In this document: positions 36,057-44,576 of the stretch, piece after piece
How the letters are laid out: the number at the start of each line of letters is the position of its first letter
How positions within the stretch are numbered: position 1 is the stretch's first letter
Source: Candidatus Doudnabacteria bacterium
Lineage (GTDB): Bacteria > Patescibacteriota > Doudnabacteria > UBA920
Assembly (NCBI GenBank): GCA_016218585.1
Contig: JACRDK010000010.1
Coordinates: 68,974 to 132,973 of the forward strand
Reading direction: 5' to 3'
Length of the DNA stretch: 64,000 nucleotides
The notes under the pieces: generated by a model
The model's database searches: none
What the model was told of the DNA's origin: nothing
What the model saw: the letters and a program-made list of their open reading frames with translations, nothing else
Position numbers and translations under genes: made by a program

Positions 36057-36560
36057 ATGTTTAAGCCAAAAATAAAAGCCCGACAGCCGGAAAGTTTTGA
36101 AAAGGCTTATGATTACGCGATGTATTTATTGAATCTGCAGCTTAGAACTTCGGGAGAGTTGGAGAGTAAAATGAAAGATAAAGGTTATCAGCAGGAAACT
36201 ATCCACAAAGTTTTGGTTGAATTAGCCGCCAATAAATATATAGACGACCAGCGCTACGCTGAAGTTTATTTGGAAAATTTAAAAAAATATAAAACTTTCG
36301 GCTTTTACGGAATTAAGAAAAAGCTGATGGAAAAAAGGCTGTCTAATTCTTTAATTGAAAAAGTTTTGGGCGGAGGTTTGGGCGTTGAAGAAGAAATGAA
36401 GATTGCAAAGAAATTTGCCTTGAAGCAAAAATCAAGAATTAAGAGTCAAGAAGCAGGCCGTACGCATCAAGAAATAAATATTGAGAAACAAAAGCTCGCC
36501 CAAAAACTTCGGGCGAGGGGGTTTAGGTCTGAAATAATTATGAAAGTTTGTGCTTATTAG
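36057..36560 (+). CDS. recX: RecX-family regulatory protein
   Basis: Three-helix repeat pattern: AYDYAMYLLNLQLRTSGELESKMKDKGY...YIDDQRYAEVYL. Confidence 0.6.
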   Translation: MFKPKIKARQPESFEKAYDYAMYLLNLQLRTSGELESKMKDKGYQQETIHKVLVELAANKYIDDQRYAEVYLENLKKYKTFGFYGIKKKLMEKRLSNSLIEKVLGGGLGVEEEMKIAKKFALKQKSRIKSQEAGRTHQEINIEKQKLAQKLRARGFRSEIIMKVCAY

Positions 36561-37110
36561 CATCCCAATAAGCGTATAAAGTTTTGGTTAATTCCGAAAA
36601 ATTTTTTTCTTTGAAAGCAGTTATTATTTCCTTTTCTGATGGCAGTTCATTGTTTTGAATTTTTTCTCTTAATAGTGCAGTAACATCGCGACGGCTTTGT
36701 CCCTGAGCAAGCCACATAAAAACCAGCTTCTCAGTTTCCAGTTTAATTTCTCCATTTGTTTGCTGTGTCTCTTCTTTAGGAGTTTTATTTGGGCTTTCTT
36801 CTCCGCCGGATCGTTTTTCAGTTTTTTGATTAGTTTGTATTGCTTTTGCAATGTTCAGCAGGTTTGCGTCTAAGAAGTGGACGTTCAAAAATTTTGCTAG
36901 GGCATTTGGAGAAAGAAGACCCTCTGCATTTCCTAATAAGTTATTTGTATCCGACCAAAGATTTTCCAGTTTGTATGACCCAGAAATAATTGCTTCTATG
37001 TTTTGGTGGATTAGCTGGCTAATAGTAGTCCTTCTTTTTTTAGAGATAATTTTTCGTTCCCAATCATCTCTAGCCATAAATTCTCCCACCTTATACTTGC
37101 CTTCAGTCAT
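36538..37110 (-). CDS. Hypothetical protein
   Basis: 190-aa ORF converging on recX. No recognisable motif. Confidence 0.35.
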   Translation of the reverse strand: MTEGKYKVGEFMARDDWERKIISKKRRTTISQLIHQNIEAIISGSYKLENLWSDTNNLLGNAEGLLSPNALAKFLNVHFLDANLLNIAKAIQTNQKTEKRSGGEESPNKTPKEETQQTNGEIKLETEKLVFMWLAQGQSRRDVTALLREKIQNNELPSEKEIITAFKEKNFSELTKTLYAYWDANKHKLS

Positions 37111-37119
37111 ATTTTTTCT

Positions 37120-38034
37120 TTATAAATTCATTTCTCTTAATCTTTTTACTCTGTCTTCAATTGGCGGGTGGGTGTTAAACAGCCCGGCGAGCCAAGGCTT
37201 TTTGCCGTTTTCATCGGCCTTAAGCGGGCTGACAATGTATAAATGCGCAGTGGCTTTATTGGCGGCTTCAAGCGGTTCGCGATCAGAAGAAATCTTTTCT
37301 AATGCCCGAGCCAAGCCTTCCGGGTAGCGGGTTAGCAGCGCGCCCGAAGCGTCGGCTAAATATTCGCGTTGGCGGGAAATGGCCAGCTTAATTAATGTTG
37401 CAATAATAGGAGAAAGAATAGCTAATATTATCCCGGCAATCATTAAAATGAGTTGGATTTGGCTGCCGCCCTCGCTGTTATTTGATTTCTTGCGGCCTCC
37501 CCAAAAGCCGGCGCGCAAAAACCAATCCGCTAAAAGCGTAATGGTGCCAACCAACACAACCACCAATGTCATAACGCGAATGTCGTAATTGCCAATATGG
37601 GAAAGTTCGTGGGCAATAACCCCTTCCAGTTCCGGTTTTTCCAGTTTGGCTAAAATTCCGGTGGTCACGCAAACTACCGCGTGTTTTGGGTCGCGGCCCG
37701 TGGCAAAAGCATTCGGGGCGGTGTCATCTATAATATAAATTTTTGGCGTTGGCAGCCCCGCGGCAATGCATAAGTTTTCTACTATATTATAGAGTTGGGG
37801 ATTGGCTGCTCTGTCTACTTCCTGGGCGCGGGAAAGCGCCAGAGTTATGGAATCGGAAAAGTAATAGGAGATGAAGCTAGAAAATACGGAAAAGCCTACG
37901 GCAAAAAATAGAATTGCCGGGTCGTCATAGACTCTCGCAAAAATAAATCCAAGCAAAGAAATAATGAGCAAAAAGCTGAATATTAAAATCCAGCTTTCGC
38001 GTTTGTTCTTGTTAATTAGATCGTAGGTTAACAT
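37120..38034 (-). CDS. htpX: Zinc metalloprotease HtpX (M48 family)
   Basis: HELSHIGNYD is an HExxH motif. TM helices are present at the N-terminus and centrally. Confidence 0.85.
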   Translation of the reverse strand: MLTYDLINKNKRESWILIFSFLLIISLLGFIFARVYDDPAILFFAVGFSVFSSFISYYFSDSITLALSRAQEVDRAANPQLYNIVENLCIAAGLPTPKIYIIDDTAPNAFATGRDPKHAVVCVTTGILAKLEKPELEGVIAHELSHIGNYDIRVMTLVVVLVGTITLLADWFLRAGFWGGRKKSNNSEGGSQIQLILMIAGIILAILSPIIATLIKLAISRQREYLADASGALLTRYPEGLARALEKISSDREPLEAANKATAHLYIVSPLKADENGKKPWLAGLFNTHPPIEDRVKRLREMNL

Positions 38035-38115
38035 AAAAATTATAAAGTTTTCAAGTTCATAAAGTTTATCAAGTGCACCGACTTGATAGCTTGATGAACT
38101 TTGTAACTTGATGGA

Positions 38116-38661
38116 CTAAAATTTTACGTTTACCGGCTGGCCTTCTGGGCCTTTTTCGTCGATGTCAAAAAATTCACGTTTGCCAAAACCAAACATCCCT
38201 GCAAAAAGGTTGGTGGGGAATTGCTGAATTTTGGTATTGTAGTCGCGGACATTGCCGTTGTAAAAACGTCTGGCTGCCTGGATTTTGTCTTCCGTGTCGG
38301 TAAGGTCGGCCTGCAGCTTCATAAAATTTTGGTTGGACTTTAAGTCCGGATAGGCTTCGCTCACGGCGAACAAGCTTTTTAACGCGCCGGAAAGCATATT
38401 TTCATCCTTTAATTTTTCCGCCATTGATCCGGCGCCCATAGCCATAGTGCGGGCTTTGGTTACATTTTCCAAAACAGAAGATTCCTGCTTGGCATAACCT
38501 TTAACGGTTTCAACCAAGTTGGGTATAAGGTCATACCTTCTTTTTAACTGAACTTCAATGTCGCTCCAGGCTTCGTCTACCTGGTTCTTGGAACGGACAA
38601 GCCCGTTAAACAAGATTACGGCAATTACGACTATTGCCAAAATTATCCATACAAATATCAT
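38116..38661 (-). CDS. lemA: LemA family protein
   Basis: An N-terminal TM helix and a LemA-like conserved layout. Confidence 0.75.
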   Translation of the reverse strand: MIFVWIILAIVVIAVILFNGLVRSKNQVDEAWSDIEVQLKRRYDLIPNLVETVKGYAKQESSVLENVTKARTMAMGAGSMAEKLKDENMLSGALKSLFAVSEAYPDLKSNQNFMKLQADLTDTEDKIQAARRFYNGNVRDYNTKIQQFPTNLFAGMFGFGKREFFDIDEKGPEGQPVNVKF

Positions 38662-38762
38662 ATTTTTGATTTAGTTGCTTAATTTTTCTACGCCATAATT
38701 ATAGCACAAAAGGGGGGATTTGTGTGAGTTTAACTAGATTATCCACAAGTTGCCCGGCCCGC

Positions 38763-38824
38763 TTGACAGAGTTTTATTTACTGCTATACTTAGATATATC
38801 GCTATACTTAAGTATAGCAGTAAA
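38763..38824 (+). promoter_or_regulatory. Sigma-70-like promoter (TTGACA-N16-TATACT) overlapping a perfect 16-bp inverted repeat, a putative operator of the TrpR-like gene
   Basis: TTGACA at 38763-68. The inverted-repeat arms are tttactgctatactta (38777-92) and taagtatagcagtaaa (38809-24). Confidence 0.55.
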
Positions 38825-38848
38825 TTTTAAGAGAAATATAATAATTTT

Positions 38849-39172
38849 ATGCCGGTTTCTTGGGAGAATAAAAAAACAGACAGTCTTGTTAATGCGTTTT
38901 TGGCTTTGCGAAATAGCGCCGAAGCCAAGATTTTTTTGCGTGATTTAATGACGGTTTCGGAAATTAACGAATTTGGCAACCGCTGGCAAGCGGCGCAGAT
39001 GCTAAGCCAAAATGAATCTTATTCAACTATCCGCGGAAAAACCGGCTTGAGCCCCCGCACTATTGCCCGCATTTCCAAATGGCTCAAAAGCGGCATGAGC
39101 GGCTACAGCCTTATTATCAATCGTTTGCAGAAGCATCACACAAGCTCTTCTTCTAAGAAAGGGCTGGCTTGA
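38849..39172 (+). CDS. TrpR/YerC-YecD-like DNA-binding protein
   Basis: LRDLMTVSEINEFGNRWQAAQML...GKTGLSPRTIARISKWLK is a TrpR-like HTH. Confidence 0.55.
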   Translation: MPVSWENKKTDSLVNAFLALRNSAEAKIFLRDLMTVSEINEFGNRWQAAQMLSQNESYSTIRGKTGLSPRTIARISKWLKSGMSGYSLIINRLQKHHTSSSSKKGLA

Positions 39173-39245
39173 TAATGCTTTAAGTAAAATTGTCACTCAA
39201 CCCCTTCTTGGAAGAGAAGGGGTTTTTAATATTAATTATAAATTT

Positions 39246-40484
39246 ATGAGGAAAATTCAAATTGGAGTTATTGGCTCAATGGCTGATTTAAAATACCCAA
39301 AAAAAATTGAAAAAGTTGCTGAGAGGGTTGGTTTTTGGATTGCTAAAAATCAAGCAGTTTTAATATTCGGTGCCGAAAAGGACTCCGATTCCCTTTCTGG
39401 TGCTGCTTGTCGGGGGGCTAAAAAAGCAGGGGGTTTGGCAATTGGCGTTACTTACGGAAAAGGTTTAAAGATTTTTGAGCAGCAAGCGGATGTGGTGATT
39501 GCAAGTGGTTTAGAGAGAGGTGGGGGGCGAGAGTTTCCTTTGGTGCTGAGCTGTGATGTTGTTATAGCTATTAGCGGAGGGTCAGGAACTTTAAATGAAA
39601 TTTGTGTTGCTTATCAGGCGGGTATTCCGGTGGTAGCAATTAAAAATAGTGGCGGTTGGAGCGAAAAGTTAATTGGTACTTTTTTGGACAACAGAAAACG
39701 CGAAAAAATTTATGAAGCAACTAATTCTTTATCTGCTGTGAAAAAAGCGCTTGAATTAGCTAATGGAGCGGTAAATAAATTAGTTCTCCCAGTTTTTTTA
39801 ACTGGTGTACATGGAGATGAAAAAGTTGGGCAGAAAGTTTTAAATTCTTTGCAAAAAGAAGGTAAAAATTTCTCATGGCTTTTGGGAAATAAAAAGGCTT
39901 TTATTAAAAATCAGAGGTTTGTAGAAGGGGATTTAAATCGTTTGGCTCCTGGAAATATAAAAAGCAAAGTTTATGAAGAAAGGTTGGCGGCTCGACTTTT
40001 AAAAAAGTTGATTTTGTATGATTATGTAATTGATATTCACGAAACTGTTTCGGCAAGCGGAATTTTTACTATAGTTACAAATCCAACAAGGGAAAATTTG
40101 TTGCTCGCTGGTTGCCTACCAATACAAAATATTGTTATTTGGCAGTCTGGATTAAATAGTGGAACAGGTCCATTAATGAATTTTGTAAAGTGCGGAGTTG
40201 AAATAGAGTGTGGTCCTAAAGGCTTGAACCAAATGGAGATAAATTTAAAAAAGGTTATAGAAAAAATATTAGAAGATGGAATAAATTTTGAAAATTCTGG
40301 TTTTGGCAATAAACAGATATTCAAAGTATATGGGAAGTTACAAAATAACCAAGCTATTAAGCCCATCGATTTCAAACTTACAAAAATTTGTGGGGAAGAA
40401 TTTTATCCTTTATTAGTCGGACAGTACCCTAACATTATCTGTTATAAAATGAAAAAAATTAATAAAAATTTATGGAAGTTTTAA
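39246..40484 (+). CDS. Fusion protein: LOG/TIGR00725-like (SLOG) Rossmann domain plus AstE/AspA (succinylglutamate desuccinylase/aspartoacylase) zinc-hydrolase-like domain
   Basis: N-terminal IGVIGSMADL and ISGGSGTLNEI are LOG-like motifs. C-terminal LTGVHGDEKVG and DIHE are AstE/AspA-like metal ligands. Confidence 0.5.
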   Translation: MRKIQIGVIGSMADLKYPKKIEKVAERVGFWIAKNQAVLIFGAEKDSDSLSGAACRGAKKAGGLAIGVTYGKGLKIFEQQADVVIASGLERGGGREFPLVLSCDVVIAISGGSGTLNEICVAYQAGIPVVAIKNSGGWSEKLIGTFLDNRKREKIYEATNSLSAVKKALELANGAVNKLVLPVFLTGVHGDEKVGQKVLNSLQKEGKNFSWLLGNKKAFIKNQRFVEGDLNRLAPGNIKSKVYEERLAARLLKKLILYDYVIDIHETVSASGIFTIVTNPTRENLLLAGCLPIQNIVIWQSGLNSGTGPLMNFVKCGVEIECGPKGLNQMEINLKKVIEKILEDGINFENSGFGNKQIFKVYGKLQNNQAIKPIDFKLTKICGEEFYPLLVGQYPNIICYKMKKINKNLWKF

Positions 40485-40591
40485 AATCTAAAAAAATTTA
40501 TCATATGGCCAATCCTCGTGCGCGGGGATTGATTGTGTATTTTTTTAGCACGCTCAATCCCTTCGCAAGAAGGAAACTCTAAGGAGGTAAA

Positions 40592-41188
40592 ATGAATATT
40601 ACAATAGAAGAGTACGATTCTTCGGGCGCTTCGGCACATCTAATTGATGCAGCAATTACCGCTAGTTACCAGGCAGCCTTTAGTGGTTTTCCATGGAATA
40701 GCCAGGTAACCGCTGAAGAAGCAAAAATTCAATTTGAAAAGCATAAGCGGAAAAATGGTTTTAAATGTCTTTATGCCATGACCATTATTCCAACGGCTTC
40801 AAATAATATTTTTTCAGTTAGTGAGCATGAACTTCTTGGAGCTCTGTGGTGGGATTGCCCTACTGAAAACCAACTACTTGAAGAACGGGGAGAAAAGTTG
40901 GTCAAATTTGCTCGCCAAAAAGCAAACACCCTTTTAATCTGGGAAAGAGAAATCTTTGTTCGCCCCGAGTATCATGGTAATGGTATAGGCAAGATGCTGC
41001 GGAAGTCTTTTTTGGAAAAATTGCCAATCATTTATGGGTCATTCTTAGTTCTTACTCGAATGCGTGATGATAACATACCTGTTATCAAAATTGCTGAGGA
41101 ATTTGGGTATGAAAGAACTGGAATTAAAATTTCTTCTAGCAAGCCGGGGATAGATCATGAATATTGGTTTTACAAAGCGAAAGAATAG
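40592..41188 (+). CDS. GNAT family N-acetyltransferase
   Basis: Motif A VRPEYHGNGIGKMLRKSF. Strong AAGGAGGT RBS. Confidence 0.7.
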   Translation: MNITIEEYDSSGASAHLIDAAITASYQAAFSGFPWNSQVTAEEAKIQFEKHKRKNGFKCLYAMTIIPTASNNIFSVSEHELLGALWWDCPTENQLLEERGEKLVKFARQKANTLLIWEREIFVRPEYHGNGIGKMLRKSFLEKLPIIYGSFLVLTRMRDDNIPVIKIAEEFGYERTGIKISSSKPGIDHEYWFYKAKE

Positions 41189-41202
41189 GAGATGCTGGAA
41201 AC

Positions 41203-42069
41203 ATGAAGGATAAGCCGTTTGTACTTTCCGAAGATGTCGAGGTGTTAATGGGTGGTTGGTCTATGCAGCGGGGCTTTAAGCTTCCGCCACCCGCTTTCTA
41301 TGGCGATTTACTGAATGCTATGAATAAATTGCTGGAAAATTTTTTTGGCACTGTTGTTATTGCCGAGGAAAAAATTATAAGCGGGCAAATAAATTCATGG
41401 GTTCAATCTTGTGGTTTGCCAGCTATATCTATGGATGGGGTATATTTCAAGTCGCCTCTTACAATCCAAGTCACAAGGTCGGTTGATGCTAAGGGTAAAG
41501 ACGTTGGGTTGTTGCCTAGGTACGGAGCATTGCCGCTCCCAGAACAAGTTAGACAAATTAGCGAAAGTGGGATTAAAGAGGCCGTGCTGGTAGATGATGT
41601 GGTGTTTAGTGGCGAACAAGCCATCTTCATTATTCAAAAGCTTTTATCTGCCGGAGTGAGGGTAAGAAAAGTTTTGACTGGCGTATCAGTAGGCGCAGGC
41701 CAAAAAATGCTTGAAGAATTCAAAGTAGAAAATCTGGCTGTGTACCAAGTGCCTGAAGTCATTGATGAAGTTTGCCAGCGGGATTTTTTACCTGGCGTGC
41801 CGCGATCTGGGCGTACGGTAGTGAACGCTGGTAATATGGGCATGCCCTACATACTTCCCTTTGGCAACCCACATAAGTGGGCTTCGATTCCAATAGCTAG
41901 TCAGTATAAATTTTCTAAGGAATGCATAGCAATAACAATGACACTGTTTGAGGCTGTAGAAAAGGCTTCCGGAGGCAAAACTGTTTTATGCTCAGACTTG
42001 GGCCGTATGGTTTTTTCTTTGCCTCATGACAAAACTAGATTTGTTGATGCCTTGCGCAGATTATTGTAA
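41203..42069 (+). CDS. Phosphoribosyltransferase-like protein
   Basis: VLVDDVVFSGEQ is a PRTase-type PRPP-binding motif. The start is taken as the ATG at 41203, after a GGAGA RBS. Confidence 0.45.
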   Translation: MKDKPFVLSEDVEVLMGGWSMQRGFKLPPPAFYGDLLNAMNKLLENFFGTVVIAEEKIISGQINSWVQSCGLPAISMDGVYFKSPLTIQVTRSVDAKGKDVGLLPRYGALPLPEQVRQISESGIKEAVLVDDVVFSGEQAIFIIQKLLSAGVRVRKVLTGVSVGAGQKMLEEFKVENLAVYQVPEVIDEVCQRDFLPGVPRSGRTVVNAGNMGMPYILPFGNPHKWASIPIASQYKFSKECIAITMTLFEAVEKASGGKTVLCSDLGRMVFSLPHDKTRFVDALRRLL

Positions 42070-42158
42070 TTCATCCGGCAGGATTAATATTCTGCCGGTT
42101 TTGTTTTAATTACTTTTTATGGTATAATTTATAAGTAAAAACAAATTTTCGAAACAAA

Positions 42159-44576
42159 ATGTCTTGGGTAGAAAAAATAAAAACCAGTGTTGATAAATAC
42201 ATTGATGACTTGGCTTTGCGCGAACTTCAGTATCGCGTAAAGTTGGTTTTGCGCGAACGGGCGGAACTGCAAACCTGGACAGATAGGGAAATAAAGCTTG
42301 CGGCCCTAGCCTTTAAGGATGATTTGAAAAAAGGTAAAAGCTTGGACACTTTGGTGGTTCAGGCCTTTGCTGTTGTAAACGAGGCCGCAAGGCGCGTTTT
42401 GGGTCAGTCCGCTTATGAAGTGCAAATTTTAGCAGGCATGGTTATTCATTCCGGCCGCGTGGCGGAAATGAATGCGGGAGAAGGAAAAACTTTAACCGAA
42501 ACTATGCCCGTGTATTTAAATGCGCTTACCGGAAAAGGCGTTCACATAATAACCACCAACGATTATTTAGCCGAACGCGACGCTAAATGGATGGGCAAGC
42601 TGTATGAATTTCTAGGTTTGAGCGTGGGATATGTAACATCTACAATGGAAAATGACGAACGGCGGAAGGCTTACGCTTGCGACATAACTTATGTCACAAA
42701 CCAAGAAATTGGTTTTGATTATTTGCGCGATAATTTAGTTTTTAGCAAAAAAGACAGAGTGTTGCGCGCGAACCACCCGTTATATTTTGGCATTGTGGAT
42801 GAAATTGACAGTATTTTGGTGGATGAATCGCGCACGCCGTTAATTATAGCGGAACCGGTTAAAGAGGAGCGCCAGGAATATGACAAGTTCGCTAAAATCG
42901 CGCAAAAATTAAAAGAGGAAGAGGACTATAAAGTAGATTACGCAAACAAACAGGTAAAAATGACAGATGCCGGTTTGGATAAAGCGGAGAAACTTTTAGG
43001 GAGCCCGGTTTTCTCGCGCGACAACCCAATGTATGTTTTTTATTTGGACGTAAGCTTAAAAGCCAAAGTTATTTTTGAAAAAGACCGGGATTATATTATT
43101 AGCGACGAAGGCGTGGAAATCGTGGACGAATTTACGGGACGCGTTTTGCCCGGGCGCAGGTTTACCGACGGCGTGCATCAGGCCATTGAAGCTAAAGAAA
43201 ATGTTAAAGTCAAAGATGCCGACCGCACCCAGGCAGCTATTACATTTCAGAATTTTTTTCCGATGTATGAAAAACTTTCCGGCATGAGCGGAACGGTTAT
43301 GCGCGCGCGTTCGGAATTTAATAAAGTTTATAAATTAGACGTAATTAAAATTCCTACTAACCGCCCGCTGGCGCGCATTGAACATAATGATTTGTTCTTT
43401 AAAACGGAAAAAGGCAAATTTTTGGGAATGATGAAACGGGTAATGCAAATTCACCGAAAAAACCAACCGCTGCTAATTGGCGCGCGCAATGTGGAAACAG
43501 CGCACAAGGTTGCCGGGCTGCTGGAAGAAGTAAATTTGCCGTTCCAATTGCTTACCGCCAAGGATCATAAGGCGGAAGCGGAAAAAATTGCCAAGGCCGG
43601 GCAGCCGGGAATGATTACAGTGGCGACCAATATGGCCGGGCGCGGTACCGACATTTTGCTCGGGCCCGGAGTTAAAGAGGCTGGCGGATTATTTGTTCTG
43701 GGAACAGAGCGCCATGAATCGCGCCGCATTGACGACCAGTTAGTCGGCCGCGCCGGCAGGCAGGGGGAGCCGGGCGAGTCGCTGTTTGTAATTTCTATGG
43801 AAGATGAAATTATGCAGCTATTCGGCAGTGAAAAAATTATTAATGTCATGGAGCAATATGACATTCCGGAAGACGAATATATTTCCGGGCAAACTTTAAG
43901 CGAGGCATTTAAAAAAGCTCAGGATTTTGTGGAGAGTAAAAATTTGGACAGCCGGTTGTATTTATACAAATACGATAACATTGCCAACCATCAGAGAAAA
44001 GTAATTTGCCAGTTGCGTGATTCGTTATTGGAAAATGAGCCAAATTTTTGGGAATTTGCCAAAACATCGGTGGCGGAAATTTTGCAGGACACGCTTAAAT
44101 TGGGCGACGCTTCCTTAATTGCCAAAGAAATGCTCGCGGTTTTTCATATTGCCGCGGATACTGAAGAGGTAATAAAGGCTTTTGGCGCCTCGCATACGGG
44201 ACAGGGGAGTTTTGCAAATGAATGGTTAAATCCATTTTATACAGAACCGCAAAACAGCAAGCAGGCGGAAGAACTTTTTTCAAAATTGTTAAAGTTTTTA
44301 ATCGACACAATGGAAAAAATTAAACAGGAAGAAGTAGTTTACGCCGCCAGCCAGAATTTAATTTTAGAAACAATCGACAATCAGTGGAGCAACCATTTGG
44401 AATTAATGGATTTGCTTAAGCAGGAAGCCAACCTTTTTTCTTACGCTTCGGAAGACCCGCTAATTGACTATATATTAGAGAGCGCCAAGCTGTTTGAAAA
44501 CATGCAAAAGCAAATAAAGAGGCAATTTTTGACGAATATTTTTTTGCATTTGCAGCAACAGGGCTTAATCGGGTAA
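42159..44576 (+). CDS. secA: Preprotein translocase ATPase SecA
   Basis: MNAGEGKTLTETMPVYLNAL is a Walker A. The DEAD-like motor and C-terminal domain layout are present. Confidence 0.9.
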   Translation: MSWVEKIKTSVDKYIDDLALRELQYRVKLVLRERAELQTWTDREIKLAALAFKDDLKKGKSLDTLVVQAFAVVNEAARRVLGQSAYEVQILAGMVIHSGRVAEMNAGEGKTLTETMPVYLNALTGKGVHIITTNDYLAERDAKWMGKLYEFLGLSVGYVTSTMENDERRKAYACDITYVTNQEIGFDYLRDNLVFSKKDRVLRANHPLYFGIVDEIDSILVDESRTPLIIAEPVKEERQEYDKFAKIAQKLKEEEDYKVDYANKQVKMTDAGLDKAEKLLGSPVFSRDNPMYVFYLDVSLKAKVIFEKDRDYIISDEGVEIVDEFTGRVLPGRRFTDGVHQAIEAKENVKVKDADRTQAAITFQNFFPMYEKLSGMSGTVMRARSEFNKVYKLDVIKIPTNRPLARIEHNDLFFKTEKGKFLGMMKRVMQIHRKNQPLLIGARNVETAHKVAGLLEEVNLPFQLLTAKDHKAEAEKIAKAGQPGMITVATNMAGRGTDILLGPGVKEAGGLFVLGTERHESRRIDDQLVGRAGRQGEPGESLFVISMEDEIMQLFGSEKIINVMEQYDIPEDEYISGQTLSEAFKKAQDFVESKNLDSRLYLYKYDNIANHQRKVICQLRDSLLENEPNFWEFAKTSVAEILQDTLKLGDASLIAKEMLAVFHIAADTEEVIKAFGASHTGQGSFANEWLNPFYTEPQNSKQAEELFSKLLKFLIDTMEKIKQEEVVYAASQNLILETIDNQWSNHLELMDLLKQEANLFSYASEDPLIDYILESAKLFENMQKQIKRQFLTNIFLHLQQQGLIG

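Follow-up and report, generated by a model that had tools for sequence, protein, structure and literature searches.

YerC of Bacillus subtilis has been described as the histidine repressor HisR, a member of the TrpR family that needs L-histidine to bind DNA in vitro (PMC9413887). As described for Firmicutes and other phyla (Ashniev et al. 2022, PMC9413887), HisR recognizes a ~20-bp palindrome whose halves flank a 6-nt spacer (consensus cacTTTAnnnnnnTAAAgtg) and has autoregulatory sites in about half of the genomes studied, with attenuators being found only in taxa without HisR; the Candidate Phyla Radiation (CPR) was not covered. Here, we analyzed a 64,000-nt stretch of Candidatus Doudnabacteria DNA (contig JACRDK010000010.1; henceforth the window) and describe a four-gene cluster (Table 1) that starts with a HisR-type regulator gene and continues, behind an intrinsic terminator, with genes for a SLOG4-AstE fusion protein, a GNAT N-acyltransferase and a phosphoribosyltransferase-like (PRTase-like) protein. 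The regulator is predicted to bind tandem operators at its own promoter, and the 3′ end of its open reading frame (ORF) to serve as an attenuator that reads His codons. We assign a probability of roughly 60% to the reading that HisR repression and His-codon attenuation jointly gate the three histidine-linked enzyme genes.

The comparison draws on two sets of CPR loci (retrieved loci carry L-numbers): 80 genome loci, comprising 1.0 Mb and retrieved via the fusion protein, and 80 further metagenome loci retrieved via the regulator, 70 of which are distinct. The window regulator shares with HisR (PMC9413887) the TIGR02531 family, an 18–20-bp N6 palindrome and a site before its own gene; moreover, most CPR relatives carry the published ACTTTA-N6-TAAAGT operator, and histidine genes are among the targets in relatives (e.g. 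hisG-hisD-hisC in L086). It differs from HisR (PMC9413887) in the GCTATA half-sites and GLSPRT recognition helix of the window lineage, in a Glu-to-Arg exchange in the ligand helix, in CPR targets that include SLOG4, PRTase-like, AstE and GNAT genes, and in a regulator that ends in a His-codon tail followed by a terminator. The putative regulon thus comprises his genes in relatives (hisG, hisI, hisD, hisC), as opposed to the SLOG4-AstE, GNAT and PRTase-like genes in the window. Escherichia coli TrpR resembles the regulator in its PF01371 fold and family, in autoregulation and in operators that overlap the promoter, but has a different half-site, and the window regulator matches the TrpR equivalog model TIGR01321 only weakly (17.8 bits; cutoff 67) and has no tryptophan genes nearby. 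TrpR dimers also bind in tandem, a likeness to the abutting operators described below.

Enterobacterial his and trp leader attenuators likewise have a run of cognate codons, 1:2, 2:3 and 3:4 segments and a fold selected by ribosome position. Unlike in these systems, the leader in the window would be the C-terminal tail of a 107-aa repressor rather than a short dedicated ORF, and the element lies between regulator and enzyme genes. Neither His_leader (RF00514) nor any other Rfam family matched positions 38000–42600 at E ≤ 1; in the rest of the window and across nine related loci, tRNAs were the only Rfam matches. In the literature searched, we found no description of HisR repression combined with leader-peptide attenuation and no paper linking HisR, TIGR00725 or the enzyme families to CPR histidine biology. 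We rate the regulation as a new combination of known kinds, in which a functional repressor ORF would serve as the leader and enzyme families of hypothetical role would be the targets.

Probable HisR-type operators at the regulator promoter

The original prediction of a TrpR/YerC-type regulator was borne out by profile matches to TIGR02531 (70.4 bits, cutoff 42.2, E = 1.3e-19) and PF01371 (62.7 bits, cutoff 27, E = 3.4e-17), and the nearest solved structures are those of YerC/HisR proteins (3frw, 3kor, 3g1c). We regard the protein as belonging to the HisR (YerC/YecD) branch of the TrpR family and, judging from the sequences at its promoter, as a probable repressor of its own transcription.

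The TTGACA-N16-TATACT promoter, correctly recognized in the original prediction as overlapping an inverted repeat, agrees with the consensus at 11 of 12 positions and ranks first among the promoter-like sites of the region; from the position of its –10 box, transcription is expected to start near 38797. The repeat is real as well. Its arms (38776–38798 and 38803–38825) are 23 nt long and 91% complementary, and the 16-nt arms originally reported lie inside a perfect portion of 17 nt (38776–38792 and 38809–38825). However, the functional operator unit is probably not this one inverted repeat; the sequence makes more sense as a pair of 18-bp palindromes of the HisR type that abut one another, O1 and O2. 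Together, these constitute the sole matches to this palindrome in the 64 kb (0.03 expected from shuffles; two matches reached in 0 of 100 shuffles). Relative to the HisR consensus, the window operator shows one change per half-site core and retains the N6 spacer; by this comparison, the GCTATA palindromes represent the form that the published HisR (YerC) operator cacTTTA-N6-TAAAgtg takes in this lineage.

HisR-type sites precede the regulator gene in ~140 related CPR loci. At a threshold of at least 11 of 12 matches, ACTTTA-N6-TAAAGT occurs 51 times in the 1.0 Mb of CPR loci, nearly always directly 5′ of a yerC or SLOG gene, and abutting tandem sites recur among the relatives. The placement 5′ of yerC or SLOG genes also holds for TGTATTAA-type and ATATTAAC-type operator classes, and L036 shows it for a third operator class; in three operator classes, a second operator stands immediately 5′ of SLOG. 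The promoter layout of the window is found again in L086 and L081. L086 encodes the closest regulator (72% identity), preceded by the same TTGACA promoter with a pair of imperfect and perfect operators; hisG, hisD and, in the hisC position, a class I/II aminotransferase gene come next. Helices and half-sites were found in fixed combinations: GLSPRT with GCTATA (window, L001, L086, L088, L089), GLSS[T/R/A]T with [A/G]CTTTA (~60 loci) and, in L134, GLSPTT with the intermediate half-site ACTATA. The recognition helix co-varies with the operator half-site. On this comparative evidence, we place a HisR-type autoregulated operator at the regulator promoter with high confidence; the original notion of an autoregulatory element over the –10 box and transcription start is very probably right.

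A separate arrangement was noticed in ten loci without a terminator between yerC and SLOG (L016–L020, L025, L030, L031, L049 and L056), where a second HisR-type operator ends 3–30 nt ahead of the start codon of SLOG and the yerC-SLOG gap shows no Shine-Dalgarno sequence. This suggests leaderless or near-leaderless transcripts with a –10 box within the operator.

A putative His-codon attenuator at the regulator 3′ end

Starting from a tandem pair of His codons, the predicted RNA comprises the four segments of a classical attenuator, namely a 1:2 hairpin, a 3:4 terminator and a 2:3 alternative pairing. The terminator, located 27 nt 3′ of the regulator stop codon, had been overlooked originally. 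It bears on the proposal that the regulator controls the downstream genes: linkage of the four genes extends over many CPR lineages, as that proposal would have it, but simple co-transcription is ruled out by the terminator. Hairpin 1:2 resembles the terminator by virtue of a direct repeat, and the last 30 nt of the regulator ORF are able to pair with the terminator 5′ arm. Naked RNA is predicted to fold into 1:2 plus 3:4. When everything from 39150 is free, as with a ribosome stalled at the His codons, the minimum free energy (MFE) structure is the antiterminator (–23.7 kcal/mol); a ribosome at the stop codon masks 39158–39185, and only the terminator remains.

In the genome loci, a terminator follows each of the seven regulators that have an HH tail, and HH tails are absent from all 18 loci that lack a terminator; in the latter, the genes abut or a second operator is placed ahead of SLOG. 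No alternative pairing was seen for the terminators behind His-less regulators (L002, L005, L058, L066). HH to HHHH was present in 65 of the 70 distinct metagenome loci, within a stereotyped tail (N-H-H-(H)-N-S-S-x-x-G-K-G-L-R/S), and 63 of these 65 have a terminator, mostly 16–38 nt after the stop codon. The distance from HH to stop is ten codons in 31 of 63 cases and 9–11 codons in 46. Across the 63 loci, the last 30 nt of the ORF pair with their own terminator arm at –11.3 kcal/mol, compared to –8.6 kcal/mol for swapped arms (0 of 20,000 permutations; p < 5e-5); with only eight loci, the same test was not significant (p = 0.13).

Covariation was assessed in an alignment of 39 loci, anchored on the stop codon and terminator loop only and not fitted to the antiterminator. 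The 12 antiterminator pairs were paired in 78.8% of cells (74.1 ± 0.8 in shuffles) and held 32 compensatory cells against 16.5 expected, a count reached by 0 of 500 shuffles; upon sliding the register by one column, pairing fell to 57–60%. The terminator itself had 90% of its cells paired and 66 compensatory cells. Folding of the individual sequences favored the antiterminator for the stalled state in 39 of 63 loci and the terminator for the stop state in 62 of 62. The joint agreement of codon identity, spacing, pairing and covariation is hard to explain otherwise. We hold with moderate to good confidence that the 3′ end of the regulator ORF is a His-codon attenuator of the classical his type, with the repressor ORF as its predicted leader peptide.

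Two further observations concern this region. The sixth antiterminator pair (39160/39204 in the window; alignment columns 27/48) is a conserved A-C mismatch, unpaired in 25 of 39 sequences, which may leave the antiterminator the weaker of the two structures or make it kinetically reversible relative to the terminator. As for the proteins, regulators with a His tail have no other His in their body; tail-less relatives often have one in the recognition region (VHKWL).

Table 1. Positions of the predicted genes and regulatory features of the cluster, numbered along the window.
Feature	Position	Strand	Remarks
–35 hexamer TTGACA, regulator promoter	38763–38768	+	consensus scan 11/12; 16-nt spacer
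Inverted repeat of the original prediction	38776–38825		left half of O1, right half of O2 and flanks
Extended –10 element TGcTATACT	38782–38790	+	inside O1; TG extension; –10 box 38785–38790
Putative operator O1, GCTATA-cttaga-TATATC	38783–38800		imperfect HisR-type 18-bp palindrome; 3 mismatches vs. O2
Putative operator O2, GCTATA-cttaag-TATAGC (GCTATACTTAAGTATAGC)	38801–38818		perfect 18-bp palindrome; ~+4 to +21 of the inferred transcript
hisR/yerC-like repressor gene	38849–39172	+	107 aa; C-terminal extension QKHHTSSSSKKGLA
Tandem His codons CAT CAC	39134–39139	+	ORF has no further His codon; 10 codons ahead of stop; proposed sensing codons
Hairpin 1:2 at ORF end	39143–39165	+	segment 1 CUCUUCUUCU, segment 2 AAGAAAGGG; part of the naked-RNA MFE structure
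Predicted antiterminator	39150–39214	+	39150–39176 pairs with 39189–39214; buries the entire terminator 5′ arm
Intrinsic terminator, regulator/fusion gap	39199–39229	+	11-bp stem 39199–39224, GGAA loop, U tract; –17.2 kcal/mol, z –3.0
SLOG4-AstE fusion gene	39246–40484	+	412 aa; SLOG cluster 4 ~aa 1–175, AstE/AspA-type zinc deacylase ~aa 183–412
Hairpin with distal U run, fusion/GNAT gap	40510–40531	+	weak, terminator-like; –14.4 kcal/mol, z –1.8
GNAT N-acyltransferase gene	40592–41188	+	198 aa; strong Shine-Dalgarno sequence AAGGAGG
PRTase-like gene	41203–42069	+	288 aa; type I PRTase core and large conserved C-terminal 'hood'
Intrinsic terminator closing the cluster, ahead of secA	42075–42098	+	–16.5 kcal/mol, z –5.5

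Enzyme families and their histidine context

The LOG/SLOG-AstE/AspA fusion of the original prediction is present. The N-terminal half of the protein matches SLOG cluster 4 (PF18306; 101.7 bits, cutoff 26.3, E = 3.9e-29), remains below the cutoff of TIGR00725 (80.6 vs. 106.9 bits) and matches LOG models weakly (TIGR00730, E = 9e-4). Its best fold matches are TM1055 and molybdenum cofactor (Moco)-binding proteins (template modeling (TM)-score 0.85–0.88), with LOG enzymes being less close. With the LOG/PpnN phosphoribohydrolases and the TIGR00725 proteins (TM1055, Moco carrier/binding) it shares the Rossmann-like SLOG fold and the GGxGTxxE motif, here the invariant GGSGTLxE; its sub-cutoff TIGR00725 score, its own invariant, charged motifs (GAEKDxDSLS, RGGGRE) and its fusion to a zinc deacylase set it apart from them. 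The C-terminal half corresponds to the AstE/AspA catalytic domain (PF24827; 47.7 bits, cutoff 25, E = 1.7e-12). Eight residues are invariant among 23 sequences (H189, E192, R224, N231, R232, H265, E319, E321), making up the zinc ligands (His-Glu-His), the catalytic Glu and the Arg/Asn/Arg clamp for the alpha-carboxylate. Its fold matches aminoacylase 3 with bound N-acetyl-tyrosine best, as well as aspartoacylase (E = 7e-14; 3nfz, 2i3c), and these residues are conserved with both enzymes, although the window domain is shorter (~230 vs. ~300 aa) and, unlike aspartoacylase, has no invariant Arg at the beta-carboxylate-binding region, as judged by eye without structural alignment. These features point to an N-acyl-amino-acid deacylase; acyl-histidine as its substrate is a reasonable guess, but no more. 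The fusion protein has ~35 full-length CPR homologues, and its structure model reached a predicted local distance difference test (pLDDT) score of 87.

The GNAT assignment, too, stands, on a marginal match to PF00583 (21.7 bits, cutoff 20.7) and an acyl-CoA loop (YHGNGIG). The nearest solved relatives, phosphinothricin N-acetyltransferase and YpeA, are weak matches, and the protein weakly resembles amino-acid N-acetyltransferases. This GNAT family is rare (10 clusters), with AstE always alongside.

For the PRTase-like protein, sequence matches are weak and the assignment is by fold: in the confident model (pLDDT 96.5), a PRTase core of type I, including a DDxxxSG loop, is joined by an extra region that is large and highly conserved. 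Foldseek aligned it to OPRT, APRT and XPRT over the core only (~140–160 residues; query TM-score 0.27–0.30). Like these type I enzymes, it has the ribose-phosphate loop, here VLVDDVVFSG, which lacks the usual terminal G-T; unlike in these enzymes, an extra C-terminal region adjoins the core. PF00156 matches 20 of 33 family members, not including the window protein. The family is large, with 1180 representatives at E ≤ 1e-3 that are mostly annotated as hypothetical, and includes HAD-PRT and GNAT-PRT fusions. None of the cluster's enzymes is a housekeeping enzyme of known role, in line with the original view of the fusion architecture as no standard annotated enzyme. By family, SLOG-AstE forms a hydrolytic pair, and the GNAT and PRTase-like proteins form a transferase pair with the opposite chemistry. 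A pathway to a modified nucleotide or a nucleoside-amino-acid conjugate, as originally suggested, is possible, and the findings speak neither for nor against it.

Two simple functional assignments were rejected. HisG takes the place of the PRTase-like gene in L072, yet both co-occur in five loci (L040, L042, L057, L059, L070), which argues against the PRTase-like protein as a simple HisG analogue. SLOG4 as a replacement of HisE is at odds with hisE adjoining SLOG in L040, L068 and L069.

The biological theme that the original prediction had missed is histidine, as related loci contain HisR, hisG/I/E/D/C, histidyl-tRNA synthetase (HisRS), tRNA-His and histidine ammonia-lyase genes. The first two ORFs behind the attenuator in 60 loci encode predominantly HisG (11), phosphoribosyl-AMP cyclohydrolase (PRA-CH/HisI; 9), SLOG4 (5), AstE (4), GNAT (4) and HisD (3), with one histidine ammonia-lyase; GNAT-AstE pairs and one SLOG-PRTase-like pair are also found directly behind it. 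Around SLOG4 (84 genome loci), we counted PRTase-like genes (52), yerC (38), AstE (~16), PfkB-like (12), HAD (9–12), HisG (8), GNAT (7), HisE (5) and M20 peptidase genes (5), plus HisI, HisD and histidine ammonia-lyase genes in a few. HisRS lies near SLOG4 in 21 of the 84 loci, where ~1 would be expected by chance (±8 kb window, ~1 Mb genome), and tRNA-His genes occur in 8 of the 20 loci checked. SLOG or his genes immediately follow the regulator gene in 38 genome loci, as they do in most of the 70 metagenome loci. With the linkage of the genes thus conserved, neither part of the picture that would have spoken against a dedicated cluster, i.e. well-known housekeeping enzymes or unlinked genes, was found.

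Pairwise fusions (SLOG-AstE, SLOG-PfkB, SLOG-HAD, SLOG-HisI, AstE-HAD, HAD-PRT, GNAT-PRT) appear to link the SLOG4, PRTase-like, AstE, GNAT, HAD, PfkB and HisI families into one network. HisI-SLOG4 fusions exist in both domain orders (P0089 at L081:10001–11068, and P0101), which implies that they arose independently. In L081, the HisI-SLOG fusion occupies the slot between lemA-yerC and secA that in the window holds the three enzyme genes, the cluster there being flanked by lemA (38116–38661, minus strand) and secA (42159 onward). From gene neighborhoods and fusions, the histidine link is robust across relatives and contextual in the window itself.

Many CPR loci have hisG alone, or with hisE, hisI and sometimes hisD, beside SLOG4 or the regulator (L040, L042, L057, L059, L068–L070 and L072 among the genome loci; L091, L098, L106, L113, L128 and L136 among the metagenome loci). 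No hisA, hisF, hisH or hisB was found among the neighbors of these hisG-bearing loci, and none of these four genes nor hisC was among the strongest Pfam families of the neighbors in his-rich genome loci. hisC was seen in L086 only, where hisG-hisD-hisC form the start of a normal operon. Judged from such gene content, the neighborhoods with only hisG, hisE and hisI may represent a shortened histidine pathway.

Several neighborhoods have features of their own. The small-genome locus L068 (353–4699 and 9705–9780) harbors two HisRS-like and two tRNA-His genes, adjoining a PRTase-like gene, and PRTase-like and HisRS genes overlap or abut in several other loci (e.g. L042:10104–12360). Behind the attenuator, hisG or hisI may be followed by genes for S66 LD-carboxypeptidases (MccF-like) or a 369-aa class II aminoacyl-tRNA synthetase-like protein (tRNA-synt_2; L128:4756–5742, L155:1073–3222). 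Radical SAM/4Fe-4S genes come first after a His-tail regulator and terminator in L089 (3455–4501) and L096 (741–1865). In Saccharibacteria-type loci, a second, divergent SLOG cluster 4 paralogue of ~230–290 aa sits beside the main SLOG4 gene (L040:2907–3788, L057:6814–7569, L059:8544–9284, L070:5896–6591).

Proposed gating circuit and competing explanations

In the circuit that we favor, HisR dimers would bind O1 and O2 over the –10 box and transcription start and repress the regulator's promoter, a step backed by strong comparative evidence, with histidine or a related ligand as the presumed co-repressor. Transcripts leaving this promoter would reach the terminator behind the regulator, as indicated by structure prediction and covariation. 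A ribosome arriving at the stop codon would cover the purine-rich ORF end (AAGAAAGGG...), so that the terminator forms; with His-tRNA scarce, it would stall at the tandem His codons, and the segment thus freed would pair with the terminator 5′ arm as an antiterminator, so that RNA polymerase would go on to transcribe the three enzyme genes. The choice between the two structures would be kinetic, as in the trp attenuator, and the enzyme genes would be on only when both signals report a histidine shortage. What the enzymes then do can be inferred weakly at best: SLOG4-AstE would most likely hydrolyze an N-(5-phosphoribosyl) bond and an N-alpha-acyl-amino-acid amide, and the GNAT and PRTase-like proteins would perform the opposite transfers, i.e. 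acylation and phosphoribosylation with phosphoribosyl pyrophosphate (PRPP). Histidine, an acyl-histidine or an early histidine-pathway nucleotide are candidate substrates.

A number of observations weigh against this circuit. On the side of the ligand, the FFEDVCT helix of Firmicutes HisR reads F[FL]RDL[LM]T in CPR, with an invariant Glu replaced by Arg, and for this reason binding of histidine by the CPR regulator is not assured. No his biosynthetic gene, HisRS or tRNA-His gene is present within the 64-kb window, no second operator precedes the fusion gene there (the best look-alike agrees at 8 of 18 positions), and the consensus scan found no promoter-like site in 39173–39245, where a weak internal promoter is possible. 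As to the attenuator, the regulator ORF has two His codons only. The trp leader makes do with two tandem codons. The antiterminator is not the MFE structure in 24 of 63 relatives, and if the ribosome mask is extended to 39150, the terminator fold is ahead by ~1 kcal/mol; with energies this close, the switch has to be a kinetic one. Protein-level selection could also explain the conserved tail (...GKGL-R/S), and the shuffle and permutation controls treat loci as unrelated, the statistics thereby ignoring kinship. The 40510–40531 hairpin, missed in the original prediction, may uncouple the GNAT and PRTase-like genes from the fusion gene. Finally, confidence in any specific enzyme chemistry, deduced from family resemblance and gene context, is low.

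The ligand is also where another explanation enters, according to which the regulatory design is the same but senses a ligand other than histidine, for instance a phosphorylated intermediate such as PRPP, a phosphoribosyl nucleotide or 5-aminoimidazole-4-carboxamide ribonucleotide (AICAR), and SLOG4, PRTase, HAD and PfkB proteins perform nucleotide or ribose-phosphate salvage tied to the early histidine pathway instead of supplying histidine. The invariant Glu-to-Arg exchange is accompanied by other changes in the helix proposed for histidine binding (PMC9413887); the partner enzymes (a kinase, a phosphatase, a nucleotide N-glycosidase-like protein and a PRTase) are typical of salvage; HisI-SLOG fusions exist; and at many loci just hisG, hisE and hisI were found, without hisA, hisF, hisH or hisB among the neighbors. 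Yet the operator specificity is that of HisR, the attenuator would read His codons, and HisRS, tRNA-His, hisD, hisC and histidine ammonia-lyase share the neighborhoods. Furthermore, the AstE domain keeps an alpha-carboxylate clamp and has aminoacylase 3 as its best structural match. We therefore consider a ligand other than histidine rather unlikely.

Alternatively, the regulator might be an autoregulated monocistronic gene with an ordinary terminator, its association with the enzyme genes being one of synteny only and the latter using one or several promoters of their own. The terminator after the regulator is indeed a good one, the window and L001 both lack a second operator ahead of the fusion gene, and the longer ribosome mask leaves the terminator as the MFE structure. 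But a yerC gene directly 5′ of SLOG or his genes, as tallied above, and a second operator immediately before SLOG in three operator classes tie the regulator to the enzymes elsewhere. In addition, the regulator ORF end co-varies with the terminator arm, the spacing of the His codons is fixed, terminators after His-less regulators lack the alternative pairing, and the scan of 39173–39245 yielded no promoter-like site. Mere synteny thus seems improbable.

We see very little room for a nucleotide-based conflict or defense system under a small helix-turn-helix regulator. SLOG and PRTase domains are known from such systems, and membership of the SLOG superfamily and weak matches to PF24390 (PRTase-CE), PF18171 and PF18185 would fit such a system, but PADLOC found no significant match for the three enzymes and for the regulator only a weak, uninformative one to JetA (E = 0.0023), the cluster contains no effector-type domains and sits in the conserved housekeeping slot between lemA and secA, and the families are widespread in CPR and associated with his genes, HisRS and tRNA-His. 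Similarly remote is a role of the inverted repeat as a 5′-leader RNA hairpin rather than a DNA operator: the 51-nt stretch does fold strongly as RNA (–23 kcal/mol, z –7.8), but the –10 box at 38785–38790 would leave the left arm untranscribed, and relatives keep the 18-bp N6 palindromes, which co-vary with the recognition helix, not the long hairpin.

Beyond the joint gating of the window's genes by repression and attenuation, we tentatively suggest a wider reading with the odds somewhat against it, namely that the HisR-type repressor gauges free histidine or a related ligand, that its His tail gauges charged tRNA-His, and that both gate a new histidine-linked enzyme network of CPR, possibly with new chemistry. 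If true, the chemistry might be a shortened HisG-HisE-HisI-SLOG route acting on phosphoribosyl-AMP or phosphoribosylformimino-AICAR ribonucleotide (ProFAR) without the rest of the pathway or, alternatively, a cycle of phosphoribosyl and acyl conjugation on histidine. CPR bacteria (Patescibacteria) account for a large share of bacterial diversity, and their gene regulation and amino-acid handling are almost uncharted. The locus offers a concrete circuit that puts together HisR repression and leader-peptide attenuation, both of them known principles, and that appears conserved in well over 100 loci. It also connects hypothetical families to histidine (SLOG cluster 4/TIGR00725 relatives, the PRTase-like family with ~1200 representatives and short AstE/AspA proteins), which narrows the candidate substrates, and raises the question of why many CPR genomes seem to keep just hisG, hisE and hisI beside these genes.

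As regards the remaining details of the annotation, every element of the original prediction was located. Comparison with homologues places the start of the PRTase-like gene at ATG 41203 and not at TTG 41164, a point that had escaped the earlier reading. Upstream of the cluster, recX and a gene for an M48 (HtpX-like) peptidase enclose an ORF of 190 aa (36538–37110, minus strand), which shares 23 nt with the end of recX.

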